Part shown: one piece after another, positions 1,138 to 59,743 of the stretch | Layout of the letters: each line of letters begins with the position of its first letter | Position numbering within the stretch: the stretch's first letter is position 1 | Assembly: GCA_001899315.1 (NCBI GenBank) | Contig: MOYA01000004.1 | Location: 54,477 to 118,476 of the forward strand | From: Candidatus Obscuribacter phosphatis | Lineage (GTDB): Bacteria > Cyanobacteriota > Vampirovibrionia > Obscuribacterales > Obscuribacteraceae | DNA length: 64,000 nt | Direction of reading: 5' to 3' | Translations under genes and position numbers: made by a program | The notes under the pieces: generated by a model | The model's input: the letters and a program-made list of their open reading frames with translations, nothing else | Databases searched by the model: none | Told to the model about the DNA's origin: nothing

Positions 1138-1701
1138 TTAGCCGAGCAGATACGGATGAGCCGAATCGACAGCGGAAGCGCCCTTGGCACTTTCGGCCGC
1201 CAGTTCCTTGAGCATCTCGCCCACCTGGTCGGCGGTCATTGCACCGACATGAACCAGCTGGGTCCCGGTGACGGGATTGATGAAAAGGGTGGTCGGGATC
1301 TTGTCGATCTTCGCCTTGCGCGGCAGCTTTTCCGACAGGTCGCAATCGACCTGGTAGAAATCTACCTGAGCGCCGAACCTGGCAGCAGCCTGCTCCATGA
1401 GCGGACCCTGGGTTTTGCAACCCGGGCACCAGGTGGTGAAGAACTTGACCACGATGGGCTTCGTGCCCTGAGAAAGCTTCACGGGATCGAAGTTTTCGTC
1501 GTCCAGGTCGGTGAGAGCAACACGGCTGGCGGTCTGGTTGGGAAACTCTTCTCCGACGGTTTCGTCGAAGTCGTCGTTATCCACCCAGGCAGCCTTTGAA
1601 CTGTCGTTCTTAGCAGCCTGGCGTTCCTTGCGCCATCCGAAGTATGCAATCACAATACCGAGGACAATCGAAACCGCGATGAGAGTTTCGAATGTAGACA
1701 T
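1138..1701 (-). CDS. membrane-anchored thioredoxin-domain protein
   Basis: ORF 1138..1749 trimmed to ATG 1701 (AAGGAG upstream). N-terminal TM helix LIAVSIVLGIVIAYFGW, then a thioredoxin fold with VVKFFTTWCPGCK (CxxC active site). Confidence 0.85.
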   Translation of the reverse strand: MSTFETLIAVSIVLGIVIAYFGWRKERQAAKNDSSKAAWVDNDDFDETVGEEFPNQTASRVALTDLDDENFDPVKLSQGTKPIVVKFFTTWCPGCKTQGPLMEQAAARFGAQVDFYQVDCDLSEKLPRKAKIDKIPTTLFINPVTGTQLVHVGAMTADQVGEMLKELAAESAKGASAVDSAHPYLLG

Positions 1702-2157
1702 AGTGTCTCCTTCTTTCAGAGGAGTTGAGAGGTTTAGGAAGCCGTGCACTGAGCTCGACGCCGGATGGCAGAGCCGTCATGTCAAACCCTTCTCGCCCCA
1801 GACATAAACCCGTATTCATAACTGAAGCTTGGCGCAACAGAAAATGAGTACGTCTGGATGAACTGTCGAGAAATTAGAGGGTCTTTGGTGCTTCCATCAA
1901 AAGAAAAGGTTATTGGGTTTACGGGCGCAGCTTAGTTACAAAGAGGGTCATAGATCAAGGCTTAGGTCATGAGCTTTATATCTATTAAGTCAATAAAAGC
2001 CATAGGTTGGCACTAACAATCCGGCCAGCTAGCACACCCTGACAACCGAAGTGTGTTAAGCCTTCTCAACGAACCAGCGGCAACAACCTTTCCCTCTTTC
2101 TCGGCCGTGCTATACTTTCAAATCCTTAGTGGAAGAGCTGAACAGCTTTTCTGTTTT

Positions 2158-2303: not shown

Positions 2304-4022
2304 TTGGTATTTCGGTCTATCGGTAATTCGGTTTTGTCCAGTTTCAGCGAACTACTAAGCCCGGTTCATTCCCCCGAGAAAAAGAAGATTCTCGAGGCCA
2401 TTGCAAAGCGCGGTCCGCGCCTAGTGCCAATTGATGTGGCCGCCGAAACCGGCTTGGCATTGCCTTTAGTAATAAGCGAATTAAACAATATCGCCGCCGA
2501 AACCAGCGCCCATCTGGAAGTCACCGAATCGGGCAATATCTCTTACATTTTCCAGAACAATCTTGACCAGGCCTACCTGGCAAACGCATCCCGTCAGGTT
2601 TTTCTACAGGCCTGGCGAGTCTTTGCCAATGCTTCCATGATTGTGCTGCGCTTTCTTTGCGCCGCTCTATTCTTTCTTATCCGCATATCTTTCGGGATCA
2701 TGCTGATAGTAGCCGCAGTGGCGGTGGTCGTCCTGATTGTTGTCGCCATCATCGGTGGTCTAAAAGCCCTTTCAGGCAATCAAGACTCAGACGGTCCAGA
2801 CTTTGACTTTGATTTCGGCAACCTTTTCGACTTCGGCTGGCACGGCGGCTATTACCACCGCCCATTTTATCTTTACTGGTTATTTGATTGGCTCTGGGAC
2901 TGGTTCTTCTTCTGGCGTTATGTCATTCCCTCACCGGCTGGCAGTTACGGCAGAAACATTCCCAACGAAGAAGAACAAAAGAAAAAGGGAAATTTCCTCA
3001 ACAATGTCTTTTCCTACTTGTTTGGAGACGGCAATCCTAATACCAATTTCGAAGAAACCAAATGGCAGACTGTAGCCCGGATCATTGAGCTCAACCATGG
3101 AGTTGTTACTGCCGATCAGCTGGCACCCTATATCGGTGAAGACCCAAAGAATGAAGACTGGATGATCCCAATCTTGCAACGCTATAACGGCTCTCCTGAG
3201 GTATCAGAGAGCGGTCATATCATCTATGTATTCAGAGCTTTTCAAAATCAGTCAGGTGGACACAGCATTCCGATGGGATCGCTCGATGCTGCTCGAAGCC
3301 AAACCAGACCGATTGACGAACTAGCTGGACTTTACCAAAGCCACATCAAGAGACAGTCTGCCACCAAGAAAAGTGAGACTCAACTCAGATTTATTGACAA
3401 AACTCTACAAGAAGAGGAGTGGCAGTTTCTCACCATCGACGGTGGCGCCCTCACTTCAATAGTTCTCTTTGCTGCTTTTGTTTCGATTGGCAGCCTGGCG
3501 CTGTTGTTCAATGCAGCAGCCATTCCGATATTAGCGACCCTTAAGCCTTTGCTGTTTTTGCTTGCCGGCTATGGCGGCATGTTCTTTTTCATACCGGCGG
3601 TGCGCTACGCCATTTATAAAGGCATAAACGAAGGCATCGAAAAGAGAAACAGCGCCAAGCAGGCCTACGCCACCGCGCTCTCGAGACCGAGCGAAGATCT
3701 GGCCAAAAAGCTAGACGAAGCAGCTTCAATTAGAATCAGCGGCATTCCTCAAAAGCCCGACCGCACAGTCTACAGCACCGAACGCAATGCCCAAGAGCAA
3801 TACATCGAAGAACAGCTAGAGCTGGGACTAGCAAGCAAAAACCCTGAAAAATCTAGCATAGACGGAAAGCCTAATGCAGCTGATGCAGCTCATGCAGCCG
3901 ATGCAGCTAAAGACGATGGGCACGATAATGCTGATGCCCAAGAGAATGATAAAGACCCAGGACAAATACTAAAGTTCGAGCGCAAACTAAAAATCGAAGA
4001 GCCCGAAGACTTCTCACCATAG
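2304..4022 (+). CDS. multi-pass membrane protein, unknown function
   Basis: 572-aa ORF; TTG start is uncertain. Contains hydrophobic/aromatic TM blocks. Two soluble modules both end in EV(T/S)ESG(N/H)I(S/I)Y(I/V)F. C-terminus is Ala/Asp-rich. No family assigned. Confidence 0.6.
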   Translation: MVFRSIGNSVLSSFSELLSPVHSPEKKKILEAIAKRGPRLVPIDVAAETGLALPLVISELNNIAAETSAHLEVTESGNISYIFQNNLDQAYLANASRQVFLQAWRVFANASMIVLRFLCAALFFLIRISFGIMLIVAAVAVVVLIVVAIIGGLKALSGNQDSDGPDFDFDFGNLFDFGWHGGYYHRPFYLYWLFDWLWDWFFFWRYVIPSPAGSYGRNIPNEEEQKKKGNFLNNVFSYLFGDGNPNTNFEETKWQTVARIIELNHGVVTADQLAPYIGEDPKNEDWMIPILQRYNGSPEVSESGHIIYVFRAFQNQSGGHSIPMGSLDAARSQTRPIDELAGLYQSHIKRQSATKKSETQLRFIDKTLQEEEWQFLTIDGGALTSIVLFAAFVSIGSLALLFNAAAIPILATLKPLLFLLAGYGGMFFFIPAVRYAIYKGINEGIEKRNSAKQAYATALSRPSEDLAKKLDEAASIRISGIPQKPDRTVYSTERNAQEQYIEEQLELGLASKNPEKSSIDGKPNAADAAHAADAAKDDGHDNADAQENDKDPGQILKFERKLKIEEPEDFSP

Positions 4023-5473: not shown

Positions 5474-6373
5474 TTGAACTTTTTGGCTTCAAAACACGTC
5501 TTTAACTACAGCGCCAAAAGCTGCCCAAACGCCCTTGCTAAAGGTTCCAAAGTAGGGAGAAAACTTCTCGTGGAAAATGACAGTAACAATTTTTCTCTAG
5601 AGTCGACTGCAAAAGATAAAGAGAGATTCAAAAACTCCAAACGCAGAACTTACGGTTCTCTGGATTTCGTCAAGCGATTCATATCGAACCTGAGTATGGA
5701 AACGATGTTCACAACAAGAGAGCTGCTGCCTCTGGTTCAGTATCGAAGTGTTTTAGACACATTCTTGTCTCGTGCCGTTAAGTCTGGTTACCTGGAAAGA
5801 CTAGCTCGTGGAGTTTTCAGAGTCAGCACTCGCATTACTAGATTTGTTACCGACGAGGAGATAGTGGCAGTGAAGCGCAAGTCGTTTAACAATCTCGTTC
5901 TGACGACAGAGAAGTCGCGCACAGAGCTAAAGATAGTCACTACAAGGAAACCAAAACCTGATGTGCCTTGCGTAATGCGTCAACCTGAGTTCCAAACACT
6001 AGGCACACAAACCAGTTTGCAGACAAACTTGGTCAATTTACTTGATACCGTAAACGGAGCCAAATACGTCCAGTGCTCAAGCAAGATCTTATTGCGACCA
6101 ATCGGCAACAGGAAGGCCGCGCTTGGAGAAACCAGAGTAGGACGAATTCTTAGAGAAATTTGGGACAAAGGAAAGGGCAAAACCACTAAAGAGGAGATAC
6201 AAGAAATCTGCGGTCGCTTGAGGAGAGAAGAAAGAATCGAACTAGTAAAGCTGCGAAAATTCATACCGCAATGGCTGAGTGAAATGCTTCCAAAAGCACC
6301 AGCAGCAGCTCTGTATAGAATCCTCGAAGAGACTCATAAGAAAAAGAGCAGATCACGAAGATTCAGCCTATAG
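5474..6373 (+). CDS. basic hypothetical protein with AbiEi-like winged-helix segment
   Basis: 299-aa ORF; TTG start is uncertain. FTTRELLPLV..LDTFLSRAVKSGYLERLARGVFRV resembles the L-x-R-L-x-x-x-G-x-L-x-R-(L/V)-x-R-G-V-(Y/F) motif of AbiEi-type antitoxin N-termini. Lys/Arg-rich C-terminus. Confidence 0.5.
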   Translation: MNFLASKHVFNYSAKSCPNALAKGSKVGRKLLVENDSNNFSLESTAKDKERFKNSKRRTYGSLDFVKRFISNLSMETMFTTRELLPLVQYRSVLDTFLSRAVKSGYLERLARGVFRVSTRITRFVTDEEIVAVKRKSFNNLVLTTEKSRTELKIVTTRKPKPDVPCVMRQPEFQTLGTQTSLQTNLVNLLDTVNGAKYVQCSSKILLRPIGNRKAALGETRVGRILREIWDKGKGKTTKEEIQEICGRLRREERIELVKLRKFIPQWLSEMLPKAPAAALYRILEETHKKKSRSRRFSL

Positions 6374-13829: not shown

Positions 13830-15914
13830 CTACTTAATCGCCTCGATCTTGATCAGCTTGGGACCGAAACGATCCGAACTTTCCGGGTCGTCCTGCGGCA
13901 CTTGGCCCAAGACCGGATTGCGCTTGCCGTTCGAACCATCCGGGTAGGGATGCAGTTCGTCCATGCGCTTCTCCACCATGGGTGCAGTTACCACCGAGAG
14001 ATGCGCCCGGGTCAGTTCCCAGGGAGTGCGCACACCGGCTGTCTTGAGGAACATGAGCAGGGACCGCTGCAGGACCATGTTGTAGTTGGCCACTTTCACA
14101 TACTTGTCCTGCGGATCAAGACCACGACGCAGACGGGGGTCTTGAGTCGTAATGCCGGTCGGGCACTGATTGGTGTGGCAGCGCAGAGCCATGATGCAGC
14201 CTTCGGCAATGAGGTTGCCACGGCCGATGTTGACCATGTCGGCGCCCATGGCGATAGCAATAGCCACATCATCGCCGCGAGCAATTTGACCAGAGGCGAT
14301 GAGCACGGTTTCGTCGCGCACACCATGCTTACGCAGGATGTTGTCGACGATGGGAATGGCATGCAAAATAGGCAGACCAGCGCGATCGGCTAGGTCGACC
14401 GGTGCTGCACCAGTGCCGCCCTCGCCACCATCGATGGTGATCCAGTCCGGAGCCTCGCCGCTCTCCTTCATGTAGCGGGCGATCTCTTCGATGGCTTCTT
14501 CTCGACCGACGACAATCTTGATGCCGACCGGCTTGCCGGTGGTTTCTTGCATCAGTTTGACGAAGCGGAAGAGCGAAGGCACATCGTTGAATTCGTCCCA
14601 GGCATTGGGAGAATAGCAGTCTTCGTTCTGGGGAATACCGCGCCAGAGAGCCAGCTCGGGAGTGATCTTTTCTTTCGGCAACTTACCGCCCTGACCGGGT
14701 TTTGCACCCTGAGCCAGTTTCAGCTCGAAGCCGACGATCTGATCGTTCTCCGCCACCTGCCGCACCTTTTCCAGGTCAAGCATGGTGAAGGGCTGTTCCA
14801 TTGCCTGTCCGGCAAAGCGATAGATGCCGCGCAGGGTCTGCTCGGCAATGGCACGGGTGACCGACTTGCGGAAGCCAAACTTGGCCGGGCCAAGCTGGAC
14901 GATGATGCGACCACCGCCCACCACTTCGCCGGTCGGTTCGGTCGGAACCGAAACCAGACCAAAGGTCAGCGACGAGAGCAGCTTACGCACTTGCCAGCGC
15001 GTTTTCTTGTCGGCCTCCACCCGTTTGACCACGCCATCCAGGTGATAGGGGGTGAGCCCGCCTTCACCGGTGAGCATGTGGATATTGGCCAGCTTGGCAC
15101 CACTCGACAGAGCCTGAACAGCTTCAGCCGAGAGAGCACCCCAGCTCATGCCCGAGATATTGATCGGCCACGGACAATGGTAAGGCTTGCGGCGCTTGGC
15201 ACCGATGACCAGGGGCGGCAGACGGTTGCCCATGCGCTCGGTATCAGGAATCGGGAAGAGCCCCGGCAAGATATGGATCTCGCCTTCCTGATTGTATTTG
15301 CGCTGGGTGCCGAAGCCCAAGTTGTTGTTGATGCCCTTGGCGGAGCGATAAATATAGCGCCGAGTCACCCGATTATAGGGCGCCTCCTCGGTATCGCTCA
15401 TAAACCAATACTGCCGCAATTCGTCGCCGATGAGCTCGAAGCCATAACGGCACCAGCCAATGAGCGGGAAGTTGCGACGGATGGTGTGCTTGCGCTGCAG
15501 AAAATAGTCGTGCACGGCCACCTGGGTGAGGAAGGTCATGAGGGCAAAGATGAGCCCCGCCATTTCACTGAGGAAATGCCAGCCCAGCCACCAGGCCAGG
15601 AAGGTAAGACCGAGCGAAACAGGCAAGGCCACACTTTGCCTTTGCACGAACTCGTTGATGGAAACCTGGATGGCCACGGCCAGAACGCCGAGCACCAAGC
15701 CGTATTCCAGACCGGCGAAGCGCCAGCCCAGGGTTGTGGCAATGATGGTGATGGCAACAATGGCGTGGTGATGACGCTTGAGGTCGCGCACGCTCAAGGC
15801 GAGAGCGCCGCCTACGATTGTGAATGCCAGAGCCGAGGCGCCACCGTCGCCGATTGTCCAACCGGCTAGACCGCCAAGTAGCGCCAATGCTGTTGCAAAG
15901 ATGATCCAGAACAT
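13830..15914 (-). CDS. FMN-binding glutamate synthase family protein (GltS FMN domain) with N-terminal TM region
   Basis: ORF 13830..16079 trimmed to ATG 15914 (MFWIIFATAL...). PWPINISGMSWGALS, LTGEGG, KLAQGAKPGQGG, TIDGGEGGTGAAP and CHTNQCPTGITTQ are typical of the family. Confidence 0.85.
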   Translation of the reverse strand: MFWIIFATALALLGGLAGWTIGDGGASALAFTIVGGALALSVRDLKRHHHAIVAITIIATTLGWRFAGLEYGLVLGVLAVAIQVSINEFVQRQSVALPVSLGLTFLAWWLGWHFLSEMAGLIFALMTFLTQVAVHDYFLQRKHTIRRNFPLIGWCRYGFELIGDELRQYWFMSDTEEAPYNRVTRRYIYRSAKGINNNLGFGTQRKYNQEGEIHILPGLFPIPDTERMGNRLPPLVIGAKRRKPYHCPWPINISGMSWGALSAEAVQALSSGAKLANIHMLTGEGGLTPYHLDGVVKRVEADKKTRWQVRKLLSSLTFGLVSVPTEPTGEVVGGGRIIVQLGPAKFGFRKSVTRAIAEQTLRGIYRFAGQAMEQPFTMLDLEKVRQVAENDQIVGFELKLAQGAKPGQGGKLPKEKITPELALWRGIPQNEDCYSPNAWDEFNDVPSLFRFVKLMQETTGKPVGIKIVVGREEAIEEIARYMKESGEAPDWITIDGGEGGTGAAPVDLADRAGLPILHAIPIVDNILRKHGVRDETVLIASGQIARGDDVAIAIAMGADMVNIGRGNLIAEGCIMALRCHTNQCPTGITTQDPRLRRGLDPQDKYVKVANYNMVLQRSLLMFLKTAGVRTPWELTRAHLSVVTAPMVEKRMDELHPYPDGSNGKRNPVLGQVPQDDPESSDRFGPKLIKIEAIK

Positions 15915-15963
15915 TGTTTTGTCCTCTCTAGAGAAAGTACCGGGTTGAAAACAGGGGCGAGGC

Positions 15964-15983
15964 AATAACCGATATCGGTTATT
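15964..15983. promoter_or_regulatory. perfect 20-bp palindrome AATAACCGATATCGGTTATT (copy 1)
   Basis: Self-complementary. Lies 50 nt upstream of the gltS-like start (15914) and downstream of the pepN-1 stop (16117). Identical core at 30583-30602. Confidence 0.7.
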
Positions 15984-16116
15984 CAAAAAACTGACTGAGC
16001 AGTTTTCTTTCGCCGATAGGTCATGCCGGCCCCTGTTTTCGGTTACGTCAATTGCTTGGCTTGAGCCGATAAGCTTCAACGCTTAGGCACTTCCTCTTGG
16101 AAAAACCTATTCGTCT

Positions 16117-19017: not shown

Positions 19018-19049
19018 AAGACTTCTCCTTAGAGTGATATTCGGTTGGT

Positions 19050-26065: not shown

Positions 26066-26134
26066 CGCGGGTTTTGTGAACCTGAACAACCGCTGACGCG
26101 GGTTTCTGAACAACCGCTAGGCGGGTTTCTGAAA
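26058..26134 (+). repeat. three direct repeats of about 24 bp, ACCGCT(G/-)A(C/G)GCGGGTTT(C/T)TGAA
   Basis: Copy 1 overlaps the fadE stop codon. Copies at about 26058, 26088 and 26112. Confidence 0.7.
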
Positions 26135-26171: not shown

Positions 26172-26210
26172 CGCCTCCATTGAGTCAAACAACTAGAAAA
26201 GGAGCCTTTT

Positions 26211-28445
26211 ATGGCAAAATCCAATGCCTCTACTCCTGTGATCGTTCTCAACCTCGGTGAAACCGGCGACAAGGGCGACGACCGTCGTCCCCATGGTCAC
26301 AAGGGCGGCTGCCGTCCCCATGTGGTCATCTGCCCCGGCTATGGCGCCGAGAATTTCCCCTTCCCCAACGAGGAGACCCTCGTGGTGCGTGCCTTGGCCC
26401 GCATCAAGAAGAAGCAGGCTGCGGCTCGCGCCGCTCGCGCTTCTCGCACGGAAGATGTCGGCACCGGTATCGACAACGGTATCGACAACGAGGACCTCAA
26501 CCACCCTTTCGGCGAAGGAGGTGACCACGGCAGCGACCATGATGACCACGGTTGCGCCACCTCCCCCCACTGCCAGGGCCGGCATCCCGAGATGGAGTTG
26601 ACCGACGACGAAGTCGGCGATTCCGGGCTGCTGCGCACCTATGTTCCGGGCAGCCCCACCCTGGGCCGCATCCCCGCCAAGCGCCCGGCCGGCATCATCC
26701 CGCAGCTCGAGAAGGCTCGTGAAGCCGCTGTCGACGCCACTCTTCTGGTGGCCGCCGGTGGTCTGCGCGAACTGCTCGAAGACGGCAAGTATGACGCCAT
26801 CGTGGCCGAGCGCTTCGATGAGCAGGCCGACAAGGTGAGCTGGGCCCGTGAGAACATGGACCCCAAGTACCTGCCGGCCATCGACAGCCTGGAAGGGCAG
26901 CTGAACAAGCTGCGCCGGGTCTATCTGGCTGCGCTGCCTCGCACCCTCGACGGTCTGCGCGCCCAGAACCCCGGCACGCCCGAGTACCGGCTGCTCGATG
27001 CCGCCATCGAAGTGCTGGACGAAGAGCTGACGCCTATCATCAACGTCCTGCGTATCTGGACGGACGCTTTCGGCCAGCAGCGCAGCGGCAAGTACAAGGA
27101 GCTGGACGCCGTCGTCTTCTCGGTCGAGCAGGCGCACCACCTCTTCGAAGGCAATGTGGACGCCAGCTCCATGAGCGCCGAGACCAAGAACCGCCTCAAG
27201 ACCCGCGTCTACGGCGTGGGCAATGTCTATGTGGCGCGTTTCTCGGGCGAAGGTCCGGCCACGCTGCCCGGCACTCGCGGTCCCATCGGTGCTCATGCCA
27301 TCGAAGTGCCGCACGACGAGCGCAACATCATCACGCTCATGCTCATCCTCTACATGCACGAGTTCCGTCACGACATCTTCCACGACGTGGAAGGTCTCGG
27401 CGACGAGCTCAGCGCCGTGGTGGCCAAGGCGGTGCTCGATGCCCACGAAAAGGGCGAGCTGAAGCTGAGCAAGAACGCAGTCAAGATCGGAAAGCAGCAG
27501 GTGCCTCTGGCCAACCTCCTGGTCAAGCTCTTCGTCGACACCATCGGCGAAGTGGACGCGGACATTTCGGGCGGCGTGCTGCTCGGCGGTCCGGCCTACC
27601 TGTACAACATGCTCTCCACGTTCTCGGCCTTCAACTCGAAGCGCAAGAACATCTTCAACACGCCCAAGCTGCTGCGCACCGAGTCGTTCTACGAACTGAG
27701 CCAGGTGGGCAACGGTCAGGTCTCCCTCACCTTCCTGCCGCATCCGCCGGACTACATCCGCGCCTACATCGTTGCCGCCGCTCTCGACGAGATCGGCTTC
27801 AGCAAGGAAGCGCGTCAGTGCCGTGCACTCGCCGATCAGGGCGTCGGTTTCGACAACATTCCGGAGTACATCTCCTGGAAGTCGACCGAAGGCAAGAAGG
27901 AGCACCCCGAGATTCAGATCCCGGTGGCCGACATCAAGGCAGTCGCACCCATCGTGGCGCGCGCCCTGATTCGCACGCCGCTCAAGAGCCTCGGTGGTGC
28001 CAGCACCATCGACATCATCAACTGGACTCCCGAGCGCGAAGCCAAGGCACAGCTCCTGGCTCAGATGCTCATGGAAGGCAAGTCGGAGCTGCCCACCGAC
28101 AAGGGTGACATGCACGTCACCTACGTCATCTCGGCAGCGACGCTGGCTTACTGGGGTCTCTGCAAGTCGGGCTATCAGCCTCGCAAGGCAGCCGCCATTG
28201 TCGAGGACAACGCCCTGAAGATGATCGACCAGGTGCGCGACCGCTTCGACAAGGAGATGGCGCGCCTCAAGGCGGAAGCGGCGGAGCAGGCCGAACTGGC
28301 TGCCGATGCCGCTGCCTCCGGCGAAGCCAATCCCAATGGCGAAGCCAATCCCGCCGAAGGTGCAGCCGCCTCGGTCGAGAGCGGTGAAACCGTCGACGAG
28401 GACGCTGGCCCTGAATCCGGGGGCGGTGAAGGCACCGGCAGCTGA
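26211..28445 (+). CDS. orphan 744-aa protein with HExxH zincin motif
   Basis: AAGGAG SD. LILYMHEFRHDIFHD (H383-E-x-x-H387) and GEVDADISGG with E447 60 residues later. His/Asp-rich N-terminal patch; Ala/Glu-rich C-terminus. No signal peptide. Confidence 0.7.
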   Translation: MAKSNASTPVIVLNLGETGDKGDDRRPHGHKGGCRPHVVICPGYGAENFPFPNEETLVVRALARIKKKQAAARAARASRTEDVGTGIDNGIDNEDLNHPFGEGGDHGSDHDDHGCATSPHCQGRHPEMELTDDEVGDSGLLRTYVPGSPTLGRIPAKRPAGIIPQLEKAREAAVDATLLVAAGGLRELLEDGKYDAIVAERFDEQADKVSWARENMDPKYLPAIDSLEGQLNKLRRVYLAALPRTLDGLRAQNPGTPEYRLLDAAIEVLDEELTPIINVLRIWTDAFGQQRSGKYKELDAVVFSVEQAHHLFEGNVDASSMSAETKNRLKTRVYGVGNVYVARFSGEGPATLPGTRGPIGAHAIEVPHDERNIITLMLILYMHEFRHDIFHDVEGLGDELSAVVAKAVLDAHEKGELKLSKNAVKIGKQQVPLANLLVKLFVDTIGEVDADISGGVLLGGPAYLYNMLSTFSAFNSKRKNIFNTPKLLRTESFYELSQVGNGQVSLTFLPHPPDYIRAYIVAAALDEIGFSKEARQCRALADQGVGFDNIPEYISWKSTEGKKEHPEIQIPVADIKAVAPIVARALIRTPLKSLGGASTIDIINWTPEREAKAQLLAQMLMEGKSELPTDKGDMHVTYVISAATLAYWGLCKSGYQPRKAAAIVEDNALKMIDQVRDRFDKEMARLKAEAAEQAELAADAAASGEANPNGEANPAEGAAASVESGETVDEDAGPESGGGEGTGS

Positions 28446-28570
28446 ATCGCCGACCTTAACCGAAGCCACCGGAAGAGCAGCTGCAGCTAAAGGTCGCAAC
28501 CTGAGACGCCCTGCTCACTGACAGACAAACACGCTGGGTGGAAGACTTCTTCCGCCCGGCAGTAGCCACC

Positions 28571-30540: not shown

Positions 30541-30581
30541 GCAGAGCCTGATAGCGCAATCAATCAGGCTCTGCTTTTTTT
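30541..30581 (+). terminator. rho-independent terminator
   Basis: 12-bp stem GCAGAGCCTGAT / ATCAGGCTCTGC followed by T7. Confidence 0.85.
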
Positions 30582-30603
30582 GAATAACCGATATCGGTTA
30601 TTC
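30582..30603. repeat. perfect 22-bp palindrome GAATAACCGATATCGGTTATTC (copy 2)
   Basis: Self-complementary over all 22 nt. Directly abuts the terminator T-run, in a convergent intergenic region. Confidence 0.85.
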
Positions 30604-30806
30604 AGTTACGAGCAAATACCGCAACCAAATAAAAGACTATTTTTTTTAGCCAATTCTGCTACTGCATTACGTAGTAACAAACGCTAGGAAGCCAGCTCAT
30701 GCTGTTTAGAAGCCAAAGCCATTTACCTACGAAAGGTCCTCCCGCATACGGGCCGTCTTACATTTGCTCAACATACATTTCACAAAAATAAATCAGTCAG
30801 TCATTC

Positions 30807-32132
30807 TCAGCGTTTCATGCATATAGAAAGCACTGTTCCCGTCCTCAGCTTACGCATTCTGTCAGAACCCACATAACCTCGAGCCAGACAACTCGCAAAA
30901 ACATAACCCCTAACCTCGGACCTCTCAGATGGACCTTGAAGTTTAGAAGAGAATTGCGGGCAAGAAGAGAAGAAATTGCTGCCAATAATCGGACGAGGCA
31001 AAACAAACTGCGTTGAATTAGCAATGATGTGCATCAAGCCGCTGTATACGTAGAGATACTTTCTACTAATACGTCGACAATAATCTACGAGCAGCTCCAT
31101 AAACTCAAAGCAAGCCTTCTCAAGATTCTCTCGACTTTCACTTTGTACTCTTCCTGAACAAAGAGAACTTTGACACTTTGGCTTGCCGATAGCTATAGAG
31201 CAATCTGCTAAGCCTGATGAGTCAGAATTTCCGCCGTCTGGCTCCGCAACCCTGATCTTGAGTTTGCATCCCGGAAGAGACTCTATCAATCCATAAATTT
31301 GAAGCATGGCTATAGTTGAGTTAACTTCTGCAGTTGAGACATCCAGTTTGGCGCAAATCGAATCAATTTCATCACATCCGTTAGCAATAACAGCTAGCAC
31401 TTTAGATTCGAGTTCCGAAAGGTTTTCGCCAGAAGATGACTGATGAGGTTCAATCTGACTTGGGTGTCCAGTAATATTGGAAACACTAACGGCCGAGCTA
31501 GAAGCAGGCGCCTCACTAAAGTCGTGAACTTCAAATTCAACATCGACAGACTCTTCTTGACTCTCACAATTGGAGCGCTGCTCGTATAAGCGTTCGGCAT
31601 TTTCTTCATAGCAAGGATGCAGCCACATTGGTGAAGCAAGGCTTCTTTTGGCAAAAACAAAACTGAAGTGCGATGAGCTAAACTCCTTACATTCGCTGCA
31701 CTTAGCTGCCGCAGCTGCGTCAAGAATTGAGCGAGTTAAATTCAGGGCGGAAGAGTACGCAAGGCCAGTCAAAGCGCACAAGAAACTAGAATTGACTATA
31801 ACTCCATGTTCGTACAACCAAATGGCTGAAAACCAGGCTCTTATATTCCTTACGCGCTCGAAAAATGTACCAGCAGTCAGGCTCATGCGTCTTTTACAAA
31901 TCAAGCATTTGAACTCTCTAGAACCTTCTTGAATCTCAATTTGGTCCGAAAGACAAAGACGACAATATAAAAAACCACCACTAGTCAAGCTATCAATCAA
32001 GTCTCTCCAGCAAGTCTCAGGGTCTGGATAGACTTCATAGAAGGAACGCCACACACTACCTACATATTCTATTTTGTCTCTAGAATCGCATCGTTTGGCT
32101 ATCTCAACTAAGCCTTCTTCTAGTGGTCTCAC
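30807..32132 (-). CDS. IS1595-transposase-derived protein lacking DDE core; Zn ribbon plus DprA-like winged helix (paralogue A)
   Basis: ORF 30807..32270 trimmed to GTG 32132 (AAGGAGG 7 nt upstream). CRLC...CLIC..SLTAGTFFERVRNIRAWFSAIW..LTGLAYSSALNLTRSIL; central acidic linker plus LSELESKVLAVIANGCDEIDSICAKLDVSTAEVNSTIAMLQIYGLIESLPG; C-terminal RRISRKYLYVYSG. Confidence 0.7.
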   Translation of the reverse strand: MRPLEEGLVEIAKRCDSRDKIEYVGSVWRSFYEVYPDPETCWRDLIDSLTSGGFLYCRLCLSDQIEIQEGSREFKCLICKRRMSLTAGTFFERVRNIRAWFSAIWLYEHGVIVNSSFLCALTGLAYSSALNLTRSILDAAAAAKCSECKEFSSSHFSFVFAKRSLASPMWLHPCYEENAERLYEQRSNCESQEESVDVEFEVHDFSEAPASSSAVSVSNITGHPSQIEPHQSSSGENLSELESKVLAVIANGCDEIDSICAKLDVSTAEVNSTIAMLQIYGLIESLPGCKLKIRVAEPDGGNSDSSGLADCSIAIGKPKCQSSLCSGRVQSESRENLEKACFEFMELLVDYCRRISRKYLYVYSGLMHIIANSTQFVLPRPIIGSNFFSSCPQFSSKLQGPSERSEVRGYVFASCLARGYVGSDRMRKLRTGTVLSICMKR

Positions 32133-32208
32133 TTGATCGTCCTCCTTACTCCTATAAGTAAGAACGTAATTTCGAGAGAAAAAGTTCAAAAGATTGAGAT
32201 AAATTCTG

Positions 32209-32228
32209 AAAAACCGATATCGGTTATT
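32209..32228. promoter_or_regulatory. 20-bp palindrome copy 3 (AAAAACCGATATCGGTTATT, one mismatch)
   Basis: 77 nt upstream of the paralogue A start. It lies inside the spurious N-terminal extension of the raw ORF. Confidence 0.7.
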
Positions 32229-32640
32229 CCGAAAATCAAGAAACCAAAAAACAAAATTCTTTTGGTCCAAGGCAAACCAGATTTCATTAAATCTGCTTGA
32301 CAGCGTGCCAGCTATTCAGTAGTCTTGCCTTGAGACATTTGTCTCGTTTTGCAGGAATCACTTACCAAACCTACCAATCCAATCATCTTCATGCTTAAGT
32401 GCTTGATGGTGTGTTCCCTCGGCTGATAATGATAAGGCTCCTAGCTTTTGCTGGATCTATCAAATAGGCAGGCAACACCCCTTTCAACTCATTCAGCATA
32501 GTACCCAGCCTCTCAAAAACTTGAGGCATTGACGATAGCACTTGCACAGTTGTCAATTGCTTCTACCGGAAAAATATTGGGTATGAACTGACTTAGTTGA
32601 AAACAGGCATCTTAAGGTGCAGAATTGCCAGGAGAATGTC

Positions 32641-54855: not shown

Positions 54856-55629
54856 TTATTCAGGACAAGATGCAAGCAACTGCGGAATAATCGAAAGCTT
54901 TACCTCAAGAACATTCAACAGTGCCAGATAGAGATTCCAGCTGATTGCCTCCTTTCCCGACCAAAAGGCTTCGAGCTTTGTCTGCAAAGCAGTCAAGCTT
55001 TGCGAAGCCGATAGCTGTGCCGGATTTGCGTCATTCAAAAAACTTGCCGGATAAACCAAGTCATATTCAAATGAGGCGAACCGGCCTGAAGCACGAGCAA
55101 TCAGCCAAGCCAAAGAGCTAAACGCCGGACTTTCACCAAAATAATGAACAGCAATCTGGCGCAGAGCAGGCAGCATTTCGTCAGCCGAGACGACCAAACT
55201 GCGCTTATCATCTCCTCCTTCAAAACAGGGACCAGGCCGCGAAGCAACTAGGTGCAACTCAAAACCGCTTTCGCAGAACATACGAGCAAGTAAAAAGGGA
55301 CAAGGAAAAAGCACCTTCTCAACCAATAAATCAAATAGATGTCTATTCCTATCACTTCTTTCGCTGAGCCAAGCAGTAAGTGCTTCATTCTTTAAGCCTG
55401 TCTGAAATTGCAAACGCAACAAAAACAAATCGGCAAGCCTAAAAAGATCCGGTTCGAAATCATTCCAGAACTGAAACTTCGCTCGGTCAAATCCCATGCC
55501 AATAGGCAATTTTTGTGGAATATTTTGAGGATTTCTTTGAGGTAGTTTTTGAGAAATTTTTCGAGGAATGTCTTGAGGAATTTCTCGAGCCATACTCTGG
55601 TCAATTTTTTGGTCCATATTTTGGTTCAT
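54856..55629 (-). CDS. hypothetical protein with N-terminal Q/P/I repeat
   Basis: ORF trimmed to ATG 55629 (GGAGGG SD). N-terminus has (IPQD/IPRK/ISQK/LPQR/NPQN/IPQK) 4-aa periodicity. No family recognised. Confidence 0.55.
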   Translation of the reverse strand: MNQNMDQKIDQSMAREIPQDIPRKISQKLPQRNPQNIPQKLPIGMGFDRAKFQFWNDFEPDLFRLADLFLLRLQFQTGLKNEALTAWLSERSDRNRHLFDLLVEKVLFPCPFLLARMFCESGFELHLVASRPGPCFEGGDDKRSLVVSADEMLPALRQIAVHYFGESPAFSSLAWLIARASGRFASFEYDLVYPASFLNDANPAQLSASQSLTALQTKLEAFWSGKEAISWNLYLALLNVLEVKLSIIPQLLASCPE

Positions 55630-55688
55630 ACACCCTCCATTTTTACAAGAACAAAAGCTCGGCCCCACTCTTTCTGCCTGCGAGCCAG

Positions 55689-56492
55689 TCAGGGTCTCGA
55701 AAGGCGCAAACGCATAGTCAAACCGAAGGCTGCCAGTAACTTCTGGTAGGTGAGCAAACTGGCATTTTGTCCCCGCTTAATACGAGTTAGGCTCTGACAG
55801 GAGATTCCGCATGCGTCCCGCAAGAATGTCGGCGAATAGGCAGCAGTAAGCCTAGAAATTAATGCTGAGATGCAACGCACCACCTGGTTGGGGGCACAAA
55901 CCGTCTCGCCGCAGAAAGCAGCAGGTGACACGCTATCTCTAGAAATAGAGGCAAGACTGGTGCTTGACTCTAGACCCCTATCTTGTTCAAGCTTGTCGAC
56001 AGGTGACTGCCTGTAGTTTGGATTTAGTGCTTTCACCGGTTTGACCGATCTGGCAGAACCTAGAGGACTTAGAGGATTGAGAGGACTGACACAAACCACC
56101 AATTTCAAATTACTGGCTTCAGCGATGTCCACAAGCGTAGAGAGCCTAGGCACGCGCCAACCTTTCAGACAACGCCGCAAAGTTGCCTCTGAAACGCCGG
56201 TCCAATAGCTGACCAGCTTGCCCAACAAGTTGAGATCCTCGCATTGAAAATGAAGGCACAAATCGTAGACCAAAGGTCTGGTCATTAAGACTGTGTTTCT
56301 ATGCGCCAACTCGCAAAGCAAACCGAATTCAGAAATATTAGAGGCATAGCGCAGCTTCCTCTCTTGCATAACAGAATCAAAACTAGCCTCGTCTCTATTG
56401 CGTCTTTTGGCGACTTTTCGGCGAGCGAGTTTGCTTGTCCTAGCTGTTTTTGAAGAGTTAGACTGCTCTGAAGATTCTCTGTAGTTATTCAT
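55689..56492 (-). CDS. DNA-binding protein with two XRE-like HTH segments
   Basis: ORF trimmed to ATG 56492 (GAGGTG SD). Basic N-terminus (KLARRKVAKRRNR). GVSEATLRRCLKGWRVPRLSTLVDIA and GISCQSLTRIKRGQNASLLTYQKLLAAFG look like HTH_XRE cores. Confidence 0.55.
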   Translation of the reverse strand: MNNYRESSEQSNSSKTARTSKLARRKVAKRRNRDEASFDSVMQERKLRYASNISEFGLLCELAHRNTVLMTRPLVYDLCLHFQCEDLNLLGKLVSYWTGVSEATLRRCLKGWRVPRLSTLVDIAEASNLKLVVCVSPLNPLSPLGSARSVKPVKALNPNYRQSPVDKLEQDRGLESSTSLASISRDSVSPAAFCGETVCAPNQVVRCISALISRLTAAYSPTFLRDACGISCQSLTRIKRGQNASLLTYQKLLAAFGLTMRLRLSRP

Positions 56493-56527
56493 TAAAACGC
56501 ACCTCAATGTGTAAACTAGCTAATTTG

Positions 56528-56933: not shown

Positions 56934-57494
56934 ATGAAGAAGAACAGAGTTATCTTTGACGGCGGCGATTTCTTGATTAGAGATTTCATTAGGGATGATG
57001 CCGAAAGCCTTGCCTTGAGCGGAAACGATCGCGAAGTTTGGCTATGCCTTAGAGATCGCTTTCCAAGCCCCTATACCAGAAGGGACGCTCTAGACTGGAT
57101 AGACTTAGTCAATAATTCCAACCCGAAAATCAACTTTGCCATTGATGTAGAAGGCAGAGTAGCAGGCGGAATCGGTCTGATGCTACAAACAGATGTCGCT
57201 CGTGTAAGTGCCGAAATCGGATATTGGCTCGGCAAAGAATACTGGGGCAAAGGCATCATGACCAAAGCCGTATCAGGCATGTCGGAATGGGCCTTCTGCA
57301 ATTTACCAATCACCAGATTGTACGCACTTGTTTTCGACTTCAACAAAAGTTCTGCTCGAGTTTTAGAAAAATGCGGCTATCAGCTGGAAGGACGTCTGCG
57401 CAAAGCTGCCATCAAAGATGGAAAAGTTGTAGACGAACTTCTATACGCAAAAATTAGAGATGAACTGAGCACTGAAGCAAAACTTCAAAGCTAG
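56934..57494 (+). CDS. GNAT N-acetyltransferase (RimJ/RimL-like)
   Basis: ORF trimmed to ATG 56934. IGYWLGKEYWGKGIMTKAV and NKSSARVLEKCGYQLEG are typical GNAT motif A/B contexts. Confidence 0.8.
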   Translation: MKKNRVIFDGGDFLIRDFIRDDAESLALSGNDREVWLCLRDRFPSPYTRRDALDWIDLVNNSNPKINFAIDVEGRVAGGIGLMLQTDVARVSAEIGYWLGKEYWGKGIMTKAVSGMSEWAFCNLPITRLYALVFDFNKSSARVLEKCGYQLEGRLRKAAIKDGKVVDELLYAKIRDELSTEAKLQS

Positions 57495-58936
57495 AAACTG
57501 AGAGAAATCTCGACTGTCATCGGTGTGGTAAAGGCCCTCAACTTCCTAGAACCAATATAACCAGTCCTAAGACAGTTATCCAGAAGCTGCAGTTTAAGCC
57601 GGTTTCTGGACTCATCTCTGAGAAAATGTAAGACCGCCTCAGAACCATCGCTCTCATCTAAAATACCTGGTATAAAGCGAAGTGCAGAACCATATATTTG
57701 CAAATACTTTCTTGATATTCCACCAAAAATAAAGTTTATGCCAGCTTTGAATGCTTCCAAAGATAGCCGCAGAGCCGCTTCCCCATCAAATCTCTGACAA
57801 AACAAACATCTATCTGCTAAGCATTTCCGAATTGCTCTCTTTGTTAAGGAAAGCTTGTCTCTGCGCTCATATCTAAGATCTGCAGAGCGCCAACTAGCAT
57901 GCACGTCGCCATTCTCCAATCCATCAAAATACACATGCCTTTCGTAATCAGGACCTTTGAACTCCTGGTCCTCTCCCTCCCAGAATGAACCTGTATCTTC
58001 AGATTCGGCACTATCATTATCAAATGAACTAGCATTCGAAACTCTGTTTTTCACAACTGAAAATTTCAAACCAGCTAGTTCCTCAATTAGACCTTCTATT
58101 TGAAGCTCGGTCATTACTGCTGAGATATCAGAAATGGAGCGACCCAACACCTCACAAAGATCATCAAAACCCAGTGGTCTATCGCCCAGTACTGCCAATA
58201 AAGAAAAGGCTAGTTCTCTCTGCTTATCATCTGAAAAACAACTTTCTACTATATCCGAAGGCTTTGAGCATTCCGGATCATCTGCTGAGTCATTATCAAA
58301 ATCACGCTCTTTGTAGTAGGCATTCTCACTACTTTTCTCTGCAGATTCACCATGATCATTAGATTGGGAGCTAATTCTAGAATGGAGACGGCCCTCGTAA
58401 ACTTCTTCTTCAAACGGCCTAAGCCATCTAGGAGTTGCTAGACTACGCCTAGAAAACAAATCTAAAAAGTGTACGCTACTAATACAAACTCTCTCTTCCT
58501 TGTCCTTTTCTGATAGATCTACCGCAGCAAGAAGACTCTTTAATATGTGCTGTGCCGAAGAAATGCGAAGCCCAGACAAATCTGCAAGCATCAGTGAATT
58601 AACAAGTGCACCTCGCTCAAGCAGCCACATAGCCCCAAGCCAAGCACGCAGTTTTCTGACACCGGCAAAAAATGTTCCAGCAGATAAGGAAGAAGTTGAG
58701 TGACATTTAGAGCATCTAAATTTTCGGTGCCCATCTTTGAACTTAAGAGACTTGCTGAAACATTTGTGACAGAACAAAGCATCCTTCTCTCTGAGCTTGC
58801 CGTTCAGCCAAGACCAACAAAAATCTTCAGTCGGATAGGCAAGCTCAAACTCATGCCAAATACTCTTTACGAACTGATCTCTTCTGTCGCGTATCGCTGG
58901 ATCTTCGTGGAAAGAACGAAAAAATGGCTGTGACAT
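57491..58936 (-). CDS. IS1595-transposase-derived protein lacking DDE core (paralogue B)
   Basis: ORF trimmed to ATG 58936. CHKC...CSKC..SLSAGTFFAGVRKLRAWLGAMW..LSGLRISSAQHILKSLL; acidic linker; LLAVLGDRPLGFDDLCEVLGRSISDISAVMTELQIEGLIEELAG; GGISRKYLQIYGS. Confidence 0.7.
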   Translation of the reverse strand: MSQPFFRSFHEDPAIRDRRDQFVKSIWHEFELAYPTEDFCWSWLNGKLREKDALFCHKCFSKSLKFKDGHRKFRCSKCHSTSSLSAGTFFAGVRKLRAWLGAMWLLERGALVNSLMLADLSGLRISSAQHILKSLLAAVDLSEKDKEERVCISSVHFLDLFSRRSLATPRWLRPFEEEVYEGRLHSRISSQSNDHGESAEKSSENAYYKERDFDNDSADDPECSKPSDIVESCFSDDKQRELAFSLLAVLGDRPLGFDDLCEVLGRSISDISAVMTELQIEGLIEELAGLKFSVVKNRVSNASSFDNDSAESEDTGSFWEGEDQEFKGPDYERHVYFDGLENGDVHASWRSADLRYERRDKLSLTKRAIRKCLADRCLFCQRFDGEAALRLSLEAFKAGINFIFGGISRKYLQIYGSALRFIPGILDESDGSEAVLHFLRDESRNRLKLQLLDNCLRTGYIGSRKLRAFTTPMTVEISLSF

Positions 58937-59019
58937 TTTCAACACCTTGAGAGGTCCTGTTACTAATAACGATGTCAATAGGAAAAAAGTTCAATTTTTC
59001 CTTCGATTTTTATCTTTGA

Positions 59020-59055
59020 ATTTGATCCGGAGCCGATACCGGTTCCGGATCAAAT
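59020..59055. promoter_or_regulatory. 36-bp near-palindrome with CCGATACCGG core
   Basis: ATTTGATCCGGA GCCGATACCGGT TCCGGATCAAAT: perfect 12-bp arms, 32/36 positions symmetric. Lies between divergent genes (58936 minus, 59207 plus). Confidence 0.7.
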
Positions 59056-59206
59056 CTAAACATCTCGATTGAATTTGAACCTCGTCTGACCTCTTGCACG
59101 CGCAGACTTCGAGGCTAATTAGAGGGCTAAGGTGATTTAGTTTCAAACGTCCCATTTAGGGGAATACAACAGATAACCTTTATTCGGAGACATATAGGAG
59201 CTCGTC

Positions 59207-59743
59207 ATGCTAGACAAAGGGAAGCACGATAATTTTGACGCACCGAACCAGCTGACACATGCGAAAGCTCCTGAAGATCAGGGAGCCCTGGCAAAAATGC
59301 AGCTTGCAGCAGGACCTGAGCTATCGAAAGGCGACAAACTGCAGGCACCCACAGGAAAGTGTCCAGAAGGATTCGTCTCTTTCAACGATCTCAAGGCTCA
59401 TTACAAGACTCCAGAAGGTTTTCTGAGAAAGTCACCAATCGAAATGAGAGCTAACTACGGGCTGGCAAGCGGAGCTACCTCTGACGAGCTATTTGCAGCC
59501 ATGGGTAAGGAAGCCGCCCAAGTCTTCAAGGACGGGAATGCAGAAGTCAAAGCGTTGATGAGAACTAACTACGGTCTTAAAGACAAAGAATTCACACCAA
59601 GCAAGGTAACTGAAACTATCATCGCAAATGAAAGAAAACGCCTTAACTTGCCAAACGCAACTTTATCACAGCTTGAAGACGCCATTACAAATGACTCTCT
59701 CAACAAGCTTTTGCAATGCAAAATGCCCATAGACACCAATTAA
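59207..59743 (+). CDS. hypothetical protein with internal duplication
   Basis: AGGAG SD. MRANYGL... and MRTNYGLKDKEF mark a duplicated segment. No family recognised. Confidence 0.55.
   Translation: MLDKGKHDNFDAPNQLTHAKAPEDQGALAKMQLAAGPELSKGDKLQAPTGKCPEGFVSFNDLKAHYKTPEGFLRKSPIEMRANYGLASGATSDELFAAMGKEAAQVFKDGNAEVKALMRTNYGLKDKEFTPSKVTETIIANERKRLNLPNATLSQLEDAITNDSLNKLLQCKMPIDTN

Follow-up and report, generated by a model that had tools for sequence, protein, structure and literature searches.

The stretch of DNA analyzed here (the window, 64,000 nucleotides of contig MOYA01000004.1 from Candidatus Obscuribacter phosphatis) carries two related genes, referred to as paralogues A and B. The coding sequence of paralogue B lies on the minus strand at 57491 to 58936 and encodes 481 residues, from an ATG at 58936 to a stop codon at 57491-57493. 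That of paralogue A lies on the same strand at 30807 to 32132 and encodes 441 residues from a GTG start preceded by an AAGGAGG Shine-Dalgarno sequence. Each gene is preceded by a palindrome and, closer to the start codon, by an element resembling promoters of extracytoplasmic function (ECF) sigma factors. As detailed below, sequence comparisons identify both proteins as derivatives of IS1595 transposases in which the catalytic DDE core is missing, and we consider it probable that such proteins recognize the palindromes upstream of their own genes.

Paralogue B combines a transposase-type DNA-binding head with a DprA-type winged helix

A mechanical call of the B open reading frame (ORF) spans 57491 to 58978 on the minus strand, i.e., 495 codons beginning at a TTG. 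The ATG at 58936 is the likely start because a Shine-Dalgarno-like AAGGTG precedes it by 6 nt (58943 to 58948, minus strand, as read from the sequence and conserved in the orthologous contigs L001 and L002), because the orthologues at 98% and 77% identity, both of 481 residues, share this ATG, and because the TTG lies upstream of the predicted -10 element. The encoded protein starts with an IS1595-type DNA-binding module (residues 27-142; 58511 to 58858, minus strand; delimited with hhalign) containing, in order, a W..F..YP.E..C helix, a Cys4 zinc ribbon (C56, C59, C75, and C78; nt 58703-58771), an SAGTFF..LRAWLGAMWL segment, and a helix-turn-helix (HTH) with the variant recognition helix GLRISSAQHILKSL. 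All four cysteines are invariant across 130 family members. An acidic low-complexity linker then precedes a DprA-type winged-helix (wHTH) domain (residues about 226-295; 58052 to 58261, minus strand), which matched PF17782 (DprA_WH) with an E value of 1.1e-8 and 35.4 bits against a cut-off of 22.9; A also scored above the Pfam gathering threshold. The C-terminal module (residues 385-481; 57494 to 57784, minus strand) contains GGISRKYLQIYG and CLRTGYIGSRKLR and corresponds by homology to the helix that ends the DDE domain of IS1595 transposases.

The AlphaFold2 model of B had a mean predicted local distance difference test (pLDDT) score of 70, with values above 85 at residues 10-150 and above 90 in the wHTH; the N-terminal module and the wHTH are thus modeled with confidence, and the linker and the B-specific inserts appear disordered. 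A Foldseek comparison of this model with the PDB returned just generic wHTH folds (ArsR/HlyU/IclR/Zalpha-like, E >= 0.07), and PADLOC, NCBIfam, and PDB sequence searches with B gave nothing specific.

The family descends from IS1595 transposases and has lost the DDE core

Direct Pfam scans of B and A reported DprA_WH only, and the Pfam and NCBIfam scans contained no IS1595 match; family-level and profile-profile tests were therefore needed to address ancestry. The family was compared by hhalign with eight annotated IS1595 transposases taken from plasmid records, including IS1595 itself and ISBbi1. Residues 27-142 of B aligned with transposase residues 14-136 (99.1%, E = 9.6e-19, 115 columns), and a local alignment placed the C-terminal module of the family (F..FHGISRKYLQxYL) on transposase columns 241-311, which form the last helix (90%, E = 1.6e-6). 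The middle module of the family did not match these transposases (probability of 0.1%), and nothing aligned to their DDE core. Since the head and the last helix align and the middle module does not, B is, as judged from these alignments, an IS1595 transposase derivative in which the DDE core has been replaced by an RRS..TPA..HP..E motif, the acidic linker, and the DprA-type wHTH.

Domain searches across the family gave a similar picture. The IS1595 zinc ribbon profile PF12760 matched 8 of 22 and 17 of 130 family members (best E = 8.9e-7), with no match in B alone at E <= 1. The DDE domain profile PF12762 gave marginal matches only, at its C-terminal end, where residues 296-331 of member P0010 corresponded to positions 111-146 of 153. 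DprA_WH was found in 129 of 130 members and was the sole DprA domain detected, DNA_processg_A (PF02481) being absent from the Pfam scans of 22 and 130 members; residues 328-377 of the DprA structure 3maj weakly matched the central wHTH in sequence.

IS1595-family (ISXO2-like) transposases and the B family therefore share a homologous N-terminal helix, Cys4 ribbon, TAGT(I/F)F..W(L/F).A(I)..L segment, and HTH, and the final G.yh.iS.K(H/Y)Lq.Yl.EF helix is kept in collinear position. In contrast to the transposases, the B family is devoid of the whole DDE core, which spans transposase columns about 137-240 and contains the aspartate of VEVDE, and B has neither terminal inverted repeats nor identical copies and keeps a fixed chromosomal position across genomes. 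B is thus a derivative of the IS1595 family and not a member of it. With DprA, the family shares only the small C-terminal wHTH; it has neither the Rossmann-like DNA_processg_A domain nor a SAM domain.

Paralogues A and B are old sisters in a large undescribed family

BLASTP aligned A and B end to end at 28% identity (E = 1e-42). In a neighbor-joining tree of 30 sequences, A and B with their orthologues formed one clade in 50 of 50 bootstraps, and the two were still sisters in a tree of 130 sequences. Both paralogues have positional orthologues (75-77% identity) in other metagenome-assembled genomes, those of A being 441 residues long and 92% and 75% identical, and gene order is kept in genomes whose A or B orthologues are 75-98% identical. 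Because these orthologues are positional, with conserved gene order, we regard the duplication as old and the genes as immobile; no credible inverted repeats were found flanking B. An earlier, sequence-only reading of the window had described B as an IS1595-derived wHTH protein with a Cys4 ribbon and a DprA-like wHTH that matches A module for module, and had attributed the pair to an old duplication rather than to a recent transposition. The alignments and the phylogeny bear out each of these points, and all the modules that it listed are present in both full-length homologous proteins.

Word-indexed searches retrieved only 21 and 15 relatives, all hypothetical, with named sources in Obscuribacterales/Melainabacteria. 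An exhaustive search of 1.84 billion proteins with a full-length family profile retrieved at least 669 family representatives (clusters at 50% identity) at E <= 1e-30. The best 150 of these 669 were all full-length proteins of about 330-450 residues and consisted of family members only, so this full-length profile is unable to show remote relatives. Paralogues are common, with two in the 64-kb window and three on one 212-kb contig, at identities of 25-45%. Looking the clusters up for their taxonomy produced hardly any names. The proteins thus constitute a large, undescribed, paralogue-rich family, with unnamed members, of Melainabacteria, which are nonphotosynthetic relatives of cyanobacteria.

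Each paralogue carries its own conserved palindrome

The candidate operator of B is the 36-bp palindrome ATTTGATCCGGAGCCGATACCGGTTCCGGATCAAAT (plus strand; 59020 to 59055), at positions -119 to -84 from the ATG. Its 12-bp outer arms are perfect, a CCG/CGG pair also matches around the 4-nt center, and a repeat search extended it to 24-nt arms with 83% complementarity. No second copy exists in the window, for which shuffled sequence gives an expectation of 0 matches, and as single-stranded DNA the palindrome is predicted to fold at -15.6 kcal/mol (z = -5.8). Its core, CCGATACCGG, lies at 59033-59042, and its center is 44 bp upstream of the -35 TGAAC described below. The whole palindrome is identical in L001, and L002, which carries the 77% orthologue, keeps the core AACCGATACCGGTT and the outer TTTGATC in an otherwise diverged spacer.

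The dyad of A, GAAAAACCGATATCGGTTATTC (GAATAACCGATATCGGTTTTTC on the gene strand), occupies 32208 to 32229; it is centered 86 nt before the GTG and 30 bp upstream of TGAAC and is identical in loci L050, L051, and L010. A second A-type dyad, GAATAACCGATATCGGTTATTC, is found at 30582 to 30603, 204 nt downstream of the A stop codon in a convergent intergenic region, and is conserved in the same three loci. A is hence bracketed by two 26-30-nt dyad copies 1.6 kb apart (30576-30605 and 32206-32235; 90% complementary, and 92% identical as direct repeats), an arrangement that resembles an insertion sequence envelope and of which both parts stay in place in L050, L051, and L010. These copies are palindromic operator-like sites conserved in place, not terminal inverted repeats. 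The A-type 20-mer recurs at 30583-30602 and at 15964-15983, the latter being a third A-type dyad (15964 to 15983), located about 50 nt ahead of the ATG of a minus-strand ORF with a Glu_synthase domain (13830..15914). An orthologous copy of the third dyad exists in JAIETF010000053.1 (L022) at the same 14.6-kb spacing. The third dyad is also enclosed by a 9-nt inverted repeat, AACAGGGGC / GCCCCTGTT (16029-16037 and 15950-15958), with the same layout in L022. In total, the window has 4 CCGATAYCGG sites, compared with an expectation of 0.04.

An 18-mer of the A-type dyad had 47 matches in 185,579 species genomes, 5 of them in Obscuribacterales; three of these five lie on a single contig with an A orthologue, and two of those three keep the 14.6-kb spacing. 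We considered a high-copy repeat of the repetitive extragenic palindromic (REP) type and rejected it: in the related JAIETF genome the 18-mer occurs just three times, always on the contig carrying A, and many 11-kb loci have one family-associated dyad copy only, with 4-6 copies in a few. This pattern of few, family-associated copies fits small regulons defined by flank type rather than a REP-like repeat.

Upstream palindromes with a shared core are a family-wide feature

We fetched 80 metagenomic loci encoding family members and based the counts on 66 independent loci in which the upstream sequence was 200 nt or longer. The core CCGATATCGG was present exactly in 36 of the 66 loci (55%) and with at most one mismatch in 44 (67%). 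It was also the commonest 10-bp palindrome in the 559 kb examined, with 75 copies against 8 for the runner-up, and 44 of the 75 copies fell just upstream of family genes, in regions that make up 4.6% of the sequence. Seven independent lineages, identified by exact protein look-up, have the exact core 76-140 nt before the start codon, and only B has a one-base variant; TGAAC-N17-CGT lies downstream of each of these dyads. A literature search returned no mention of the family, of the motif in this sense, or of a domesticated IS1595 regulator.

An unbiased search for the best upstream palindrome in 51 nonredundant loci recovered a GATATC center in 32 and a GTTAAC center in 4, at a median position of -122. 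In these loci, arm complementarity stayed at 0.64 or more up to 15 bp and at about 0.45 up to 21 bp, compared with a background of about 0.25. Because this search gives similar long upstream palindromes, the 36-bp element of B can be considered typical of the family. Family genes have 1-6 dyad copies each, usually within a 30-45-bp palindrome. Loci without the canonical core mostly show, at the same position, long palindromes built on other cores (CCGTTAACGG, TCGATATCGA, TTGATATCAA, ACGATATCGT, and GAGATATCTC), and the variants differ between subfamilies. Asymmetric hybrid cores such as CCGTTATCGG occur too, the CCGATACCGG of B being one more hybrid.

The sequence-only reading had the B palindrome beginning 84 nt upstream of the ATG, with a core one base off that of A, and held that each paralogue has its own related but distinct dyad. 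The first two points were recovered by locating the palindrome and reading both dyads, and the third extends to a rule of the family, GATATC or GTTAAC being the best palindrome center in 36 of 51 loci. As for the prospect, raised in the same reading, that the dyads are generic repeats equally frequent in coding and nonpromoter DNA, it was not borne out: the copies are concentrated upstream of family genes, with a few in convergent intergenic regions and one inside an ORF. Coding and noncoding copies were sorted with a crude greedy ORF model, a six-frame open-frame mask having proved too permissive (92% covered).

Family genes share a probable ECF-type promoter element

Downstream of its palindrome, B has the promoter-like element TGAAC-N17-CGT (TTGAACTTTTTT...CGTTAT; 58969 to 58993, minus strand), whose TGAAC and CGT lie at -57 and -35, respectively, relative to the ATG. 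A pattern match located the equivalent element of A at 32164 to 32188 on the minus strand. In the window, the exact pattern occurs only at A, at B, and at 5475. Across the family, 62 of the 66 loci (94%) have TGAAC-N17-CGT at -30 to -60 from the start codon, and away from family genes the motif is at chance level in these loci (18 found versus 17 expected). The consensus of 65 distinct sites is TTGAACTTTT-N13-CGTt, in which the additional conserved T residues were not imposed by the search. The 5' untranslated region of family genes, as measured from the predicted promoter, would be about 25 nt.

AAC at -35 and CGT at -10 are a stated hallmark of ECF sigma promoters (PMC8103513). Known examples are the promoters of RpoE (GGAACTT) and SigW (TGAAACCTTT), and the spacing between the two elements is 16-17 nt. 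The family element has both, with a 17-nt gap between TGAAC and CGT; it differs in that, among the loci covered, it was nearly confined to this gene family. By its sequence, the element is thus probably of the ECF sigma type. A scan of the B intergenic region for sigma-70 promoters found nothing, and no sigma or anti-sigma gene was adjacent to family genes in the annotated loci. In L069, a copy of the motif (TGAACTTTTT...CGT, about 3720-3744, minus strand) lies just upstream of an OsmC/Ohr-like ORF (3220..3627, minus strand), and this position ahead of an OsmC-like stress gene hints that the motif may be part of a stress sigma regulon.

Two further observations concern these elements. The third site of the window (TTGAACTTTTT-N-CGT, 5475-5499, plus strand) is ahead of an ORF (5474..6373) that was checked as a possible family member and rejected, since it encodes an AbiEi_4-type wHTH protein outside the family. 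The -35 TTGAAC of B is flanked by the two halves of an 8-bp inverted repeat, AGGAAAAA / TTTTTCCT (58980-59002), which L001 has unchanged and L002 retains in part.

The predicted recognition helix tends to vary with the core

After aligning the proteins to the family hidden Markov model, we compared the upstream cores of the genes with the recognition helices predicted for the IS1595-type HTH of their products. The exact core was found with 23 of 27 helices starting with [AS]Y, compared with 15 of 41 other helices (Fisher's exact test, P = 1.3e-4, kinship ignored). AQ helices tend to pair with CCGTTA(A/T)CGG, and H/P/N-Y helices with TTGATATCAA, kinship again being ignored. A has the consensus helix AYSSALN and the consensus core CCGATATCGG. 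B has the variant helix RISSAQH and the variant core CCGATACCGG, and R(I/N)SSAQH is common to B and its orthologue. Together with the conserved upstream palindromes, this apparent co-variation supports self-recognition with diverged specificity, as far as can be read from sequence. Given that B differs from A in both helix and core, A and B probably operate without cross-talk.

A self-recognition model and its alternatives

On balance, we think it likely that B exemplifies a family of transposase-derived, DDE-less proteins that would each recognize their own palindrome as dimers upstream of an ECF-type promoter, with a specificity that appears to have diverged between A and B. We rank this model above three others, in which the dyads belong to another regulator, act as structural elements, or are fossils of transposon ends. 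B keeps the DNA-binding head of the transposase (zinc ribbon and HTH) and its last helix and has lost the DDE core. Homology, domain loss, the conserved upstream architecture, and the association of helix with core come directly from the comparisons; binding, dimerization, the assignment of domains to sites, the direction of regulation, and the sigma factor involved are inferred. A family gene would be transcribed by an alternative sigma factor, of ECF type and probably stress responsive, and its product, as a symmetric dimer, would bind the palindrome upstream. In this dimer, the IS1595-type HTH may read the 10-bp core, and the wHTH or a second contact the lineage-specific outer arms, for a total of about 20 bp per monomer. 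Binding of the dimer would then modulate its own promoter and a few other sites of the same flank type.

Several observations weigh against this model. The association between helix and core is uncorrected for phylogeny. The center of the dyad is 30 bp (A), 44 bp (B), or, family-wide, 39-153 bp from TGAAC and does not overlap the promoter, and no helical phasing of this distance was found across the family; such a variable, nonoverlapping position is not what a simple repressor or a class I/II activator would usually show. Dyads also exist outside promoters: at 30583 and in L054 (13002) between convergent genes, in L047 at the 3' end of a gene, and in L043 inside an ORF. Two arm pairs of the B palindrome are broken in L002 with no compensation. 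Finally, symmetric double substitutions occur in the arms between orthologues (L128/L130/L142), with palindromy of at least 20 bp, which favors selection on pairing (cruciform or hairpin) or homogenization by template switching.

The L043 copy is the clearest one in a coding region: a perfect 22-bp dyad, ACATAACCGATATCGGTTATGT, at 1609-1622 within a full-length-looking ogt/MGMT-like ORF (1152..1733, minus strand), where it reads NRYRL. A second copy with one mismatch is found in the same locus, 105 nt upstream of an aminotransferase ORF.

The dyads could instead serve as operators for some other regulator that the paralogues share (e.g., a global or stress regulator acting with an ECF sigma factor), the family genes being members of its regulon and their products binding elsewhere. 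The same 10-bp core before most paralogues, although the proteins are only 25-45% identical, would be expected of such a regulator, as would the single promoter type common to all paralogues and the dyads that precede unrelated genes (the Glu_synthase-domain ORF and the aminotransferase ORF). However, the variant cores are specific to subfamilies and tend to track the recognition helix of the family protein itself, flank types are private to paralogues within one genome (A type versus B type), and the dyads are 29-fold enriched directly upstream of family genes, all of which makes a shared regulator unlikely.

A second alternative sees in the palindromes structural elements, whether DNA cruciforms or RNA hairpins, that act as insulators, terminators, or supercoiling-sensitive sites without being read by the family protein. 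Perfect palindromy over 40-68 bp is seen in many single dyads, those of L085, P0026, L141, and L142 having AT-rich centers; strong hairpins are predicted (z scores of -5.8 to -11.8), and the symmetric, compensatory arm changes among orthologues and the copies between convergent genes point the same way. However, what is conserved at the apex is the 10-bp sequence and not just the pairing, and the uncompensated breaks of the B stem in L002 count against a structural role as well. Other dyads are arranged in tandem arrays of 2-6 with a spacing of 26-40 bp, and in arrays such as those of L097 and L076 only the core is palindromic, which favors sequence recognition over hairpin formation. A scan for a hairpin followed by a T-tract found no terminator-like site at 58850-59300 around the B start, and the dyads are outside the family mRNA because they lie upstream of the predicted transcription start. 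A purely structural function is thus quite improbable, yet the DNA may have some structural role because the dyads lie upstream of -35, some lie outside promoters, and arm palindromy extends to about 20 bp. Arrays of 3-6 dyads with units of about 30-40 bp, such as those at L097 3-348 (5 x 38 bp), L076 4613-4958, and L118 1-223, have an iteron-like appearance.

Lastly, the notion that the dyads are fossil ends of formerly or occasionally mobile cassettes, with solo dyads as remnants resembling miniature inverted-repeat transposable elements and no regulatory role, draws on the two copies bracketing A, on the existence of solo copies, on the highly multicopy family (two in 64 kb, three on one 212-kb contig), and on the ancestry of the head as an end-binding domain, but is very unlikely given proteins with no catalytic domain, old and syntenic paralogues, a B gene with no flanking repeats, a downstream dyad that is not general in the family, and fetched terminal inverted repeats of real IS1595 elements with no clear similarity to the core. 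A transposon-end origin of the core was itself examined against the terminal inverted repeats of the eight real IS1595 elements and rejected in the absence of a convincing resemblance. The terminal inverted repeat of a Rhodococcus IS1595 element (L059 1144-1165; reverse complement ...TGATCTAACCGGATAAGCA; ...GATCTAACCGGATA) is loosely like half of the B-type palindrome of L002, TTTGATCTAGAACCGATA, probably by chance.

Extended from B to its relatives, self-recognition would imply a radiation, in Melainabacteria, of DDE-less IS1595 derivatives into hundreds of subfamilies of sequence-specific regulators, several to a genome, each coevolving with a private 30-68-bp, possibly cruciform-forming palindrome upstream of a shared ECF-type stress promoter. 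We put this broader scenario forward tentatively, giving it slightly less than even weight.

Other features of the window

Two hypothetical ORFs are found on the minus strand between panC and B, at 55689-56507 and 54856-55668, both with positional counterparts of similar size in L001 and L002; the C-terminal end of the former is an XRE-type HTH (HTH_3, E = 7e-5). In the orthologous contigs, dnaN, the gene for the beta subunit of DNA polymerase III, is situated about 10 kb past B (L001 1-1145; L002 1-1191), and from this position the replication origin may be close to the right end of the window. At 16117-19032, 23849-26113 (738 residues on each strand), and 26193-28499, the opposite strands carry overlapping, very long ORFs, which suggests a locally biased composition. 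An Rfam scan of the window matched only a tRNA.

Relation to known systems and significance

Domesticated DDE transposases acting as transcription factors are well known in eukaryotes and, to our knowledge, barely documented in bacteria. NrdR-type zinc-ribbon repressors and autoregulated wHTH dimers (ArsR/HlyU, MarR) bind palindromic sites that are sometimes in tandem at roughly 30-40 bp. By analogy, the B family may resemble them in its zinc ribbon and/or wHTH, its palindromic sites, and its likely dimeric state. Unlike these repressors, with which it has no sequence homology beyond the generic wHTH, the family has longer palindromes (30-45 bp and up to 68 bp), placed upstream of the promoter and not over it. 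Another parallel is offered by the TldRs (TnpB-like nuclease-dead repressors), in which a mobile-element protein without catalysis has also been exapted for DNA binding at fixed chromosomal sites. TldRs are RNA guided and derived from the TnpB of IS200/IS605 elements (bioRxiv 10.1101/2023.11.30.569447), whereas the B family comes from a DDE transposase, with a predicted specificity encoded in the protein (zinc ribbon/HTH and wHTH) and many paralogues that each have a private palindrome.

If the self-recognition model holds true, the family would be a bacterial counterpart of the transposase-derived transcription factor families of eukaryotes, in which the recognition of transposon ends has been repurposed for operators. 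It would represent a clean case of domestication, in which a winged helix has taken the place of the catalytic core and the DNA-binding head and tail remain. A shared promoter combined with private palindromes built on a few discrete cores would further make it a natural experiment in which duplicated DNA-binding proteins diversify in specificity while avoiding cross-talk. For the nonphotosynthetic Melainabacteria/Obscuribacterales, it would give a first handle on regulation, with a candidate ECF-type promoter consensus for the group, and at least 669 protein clusters now labeled "hypothetical" would receive a name.

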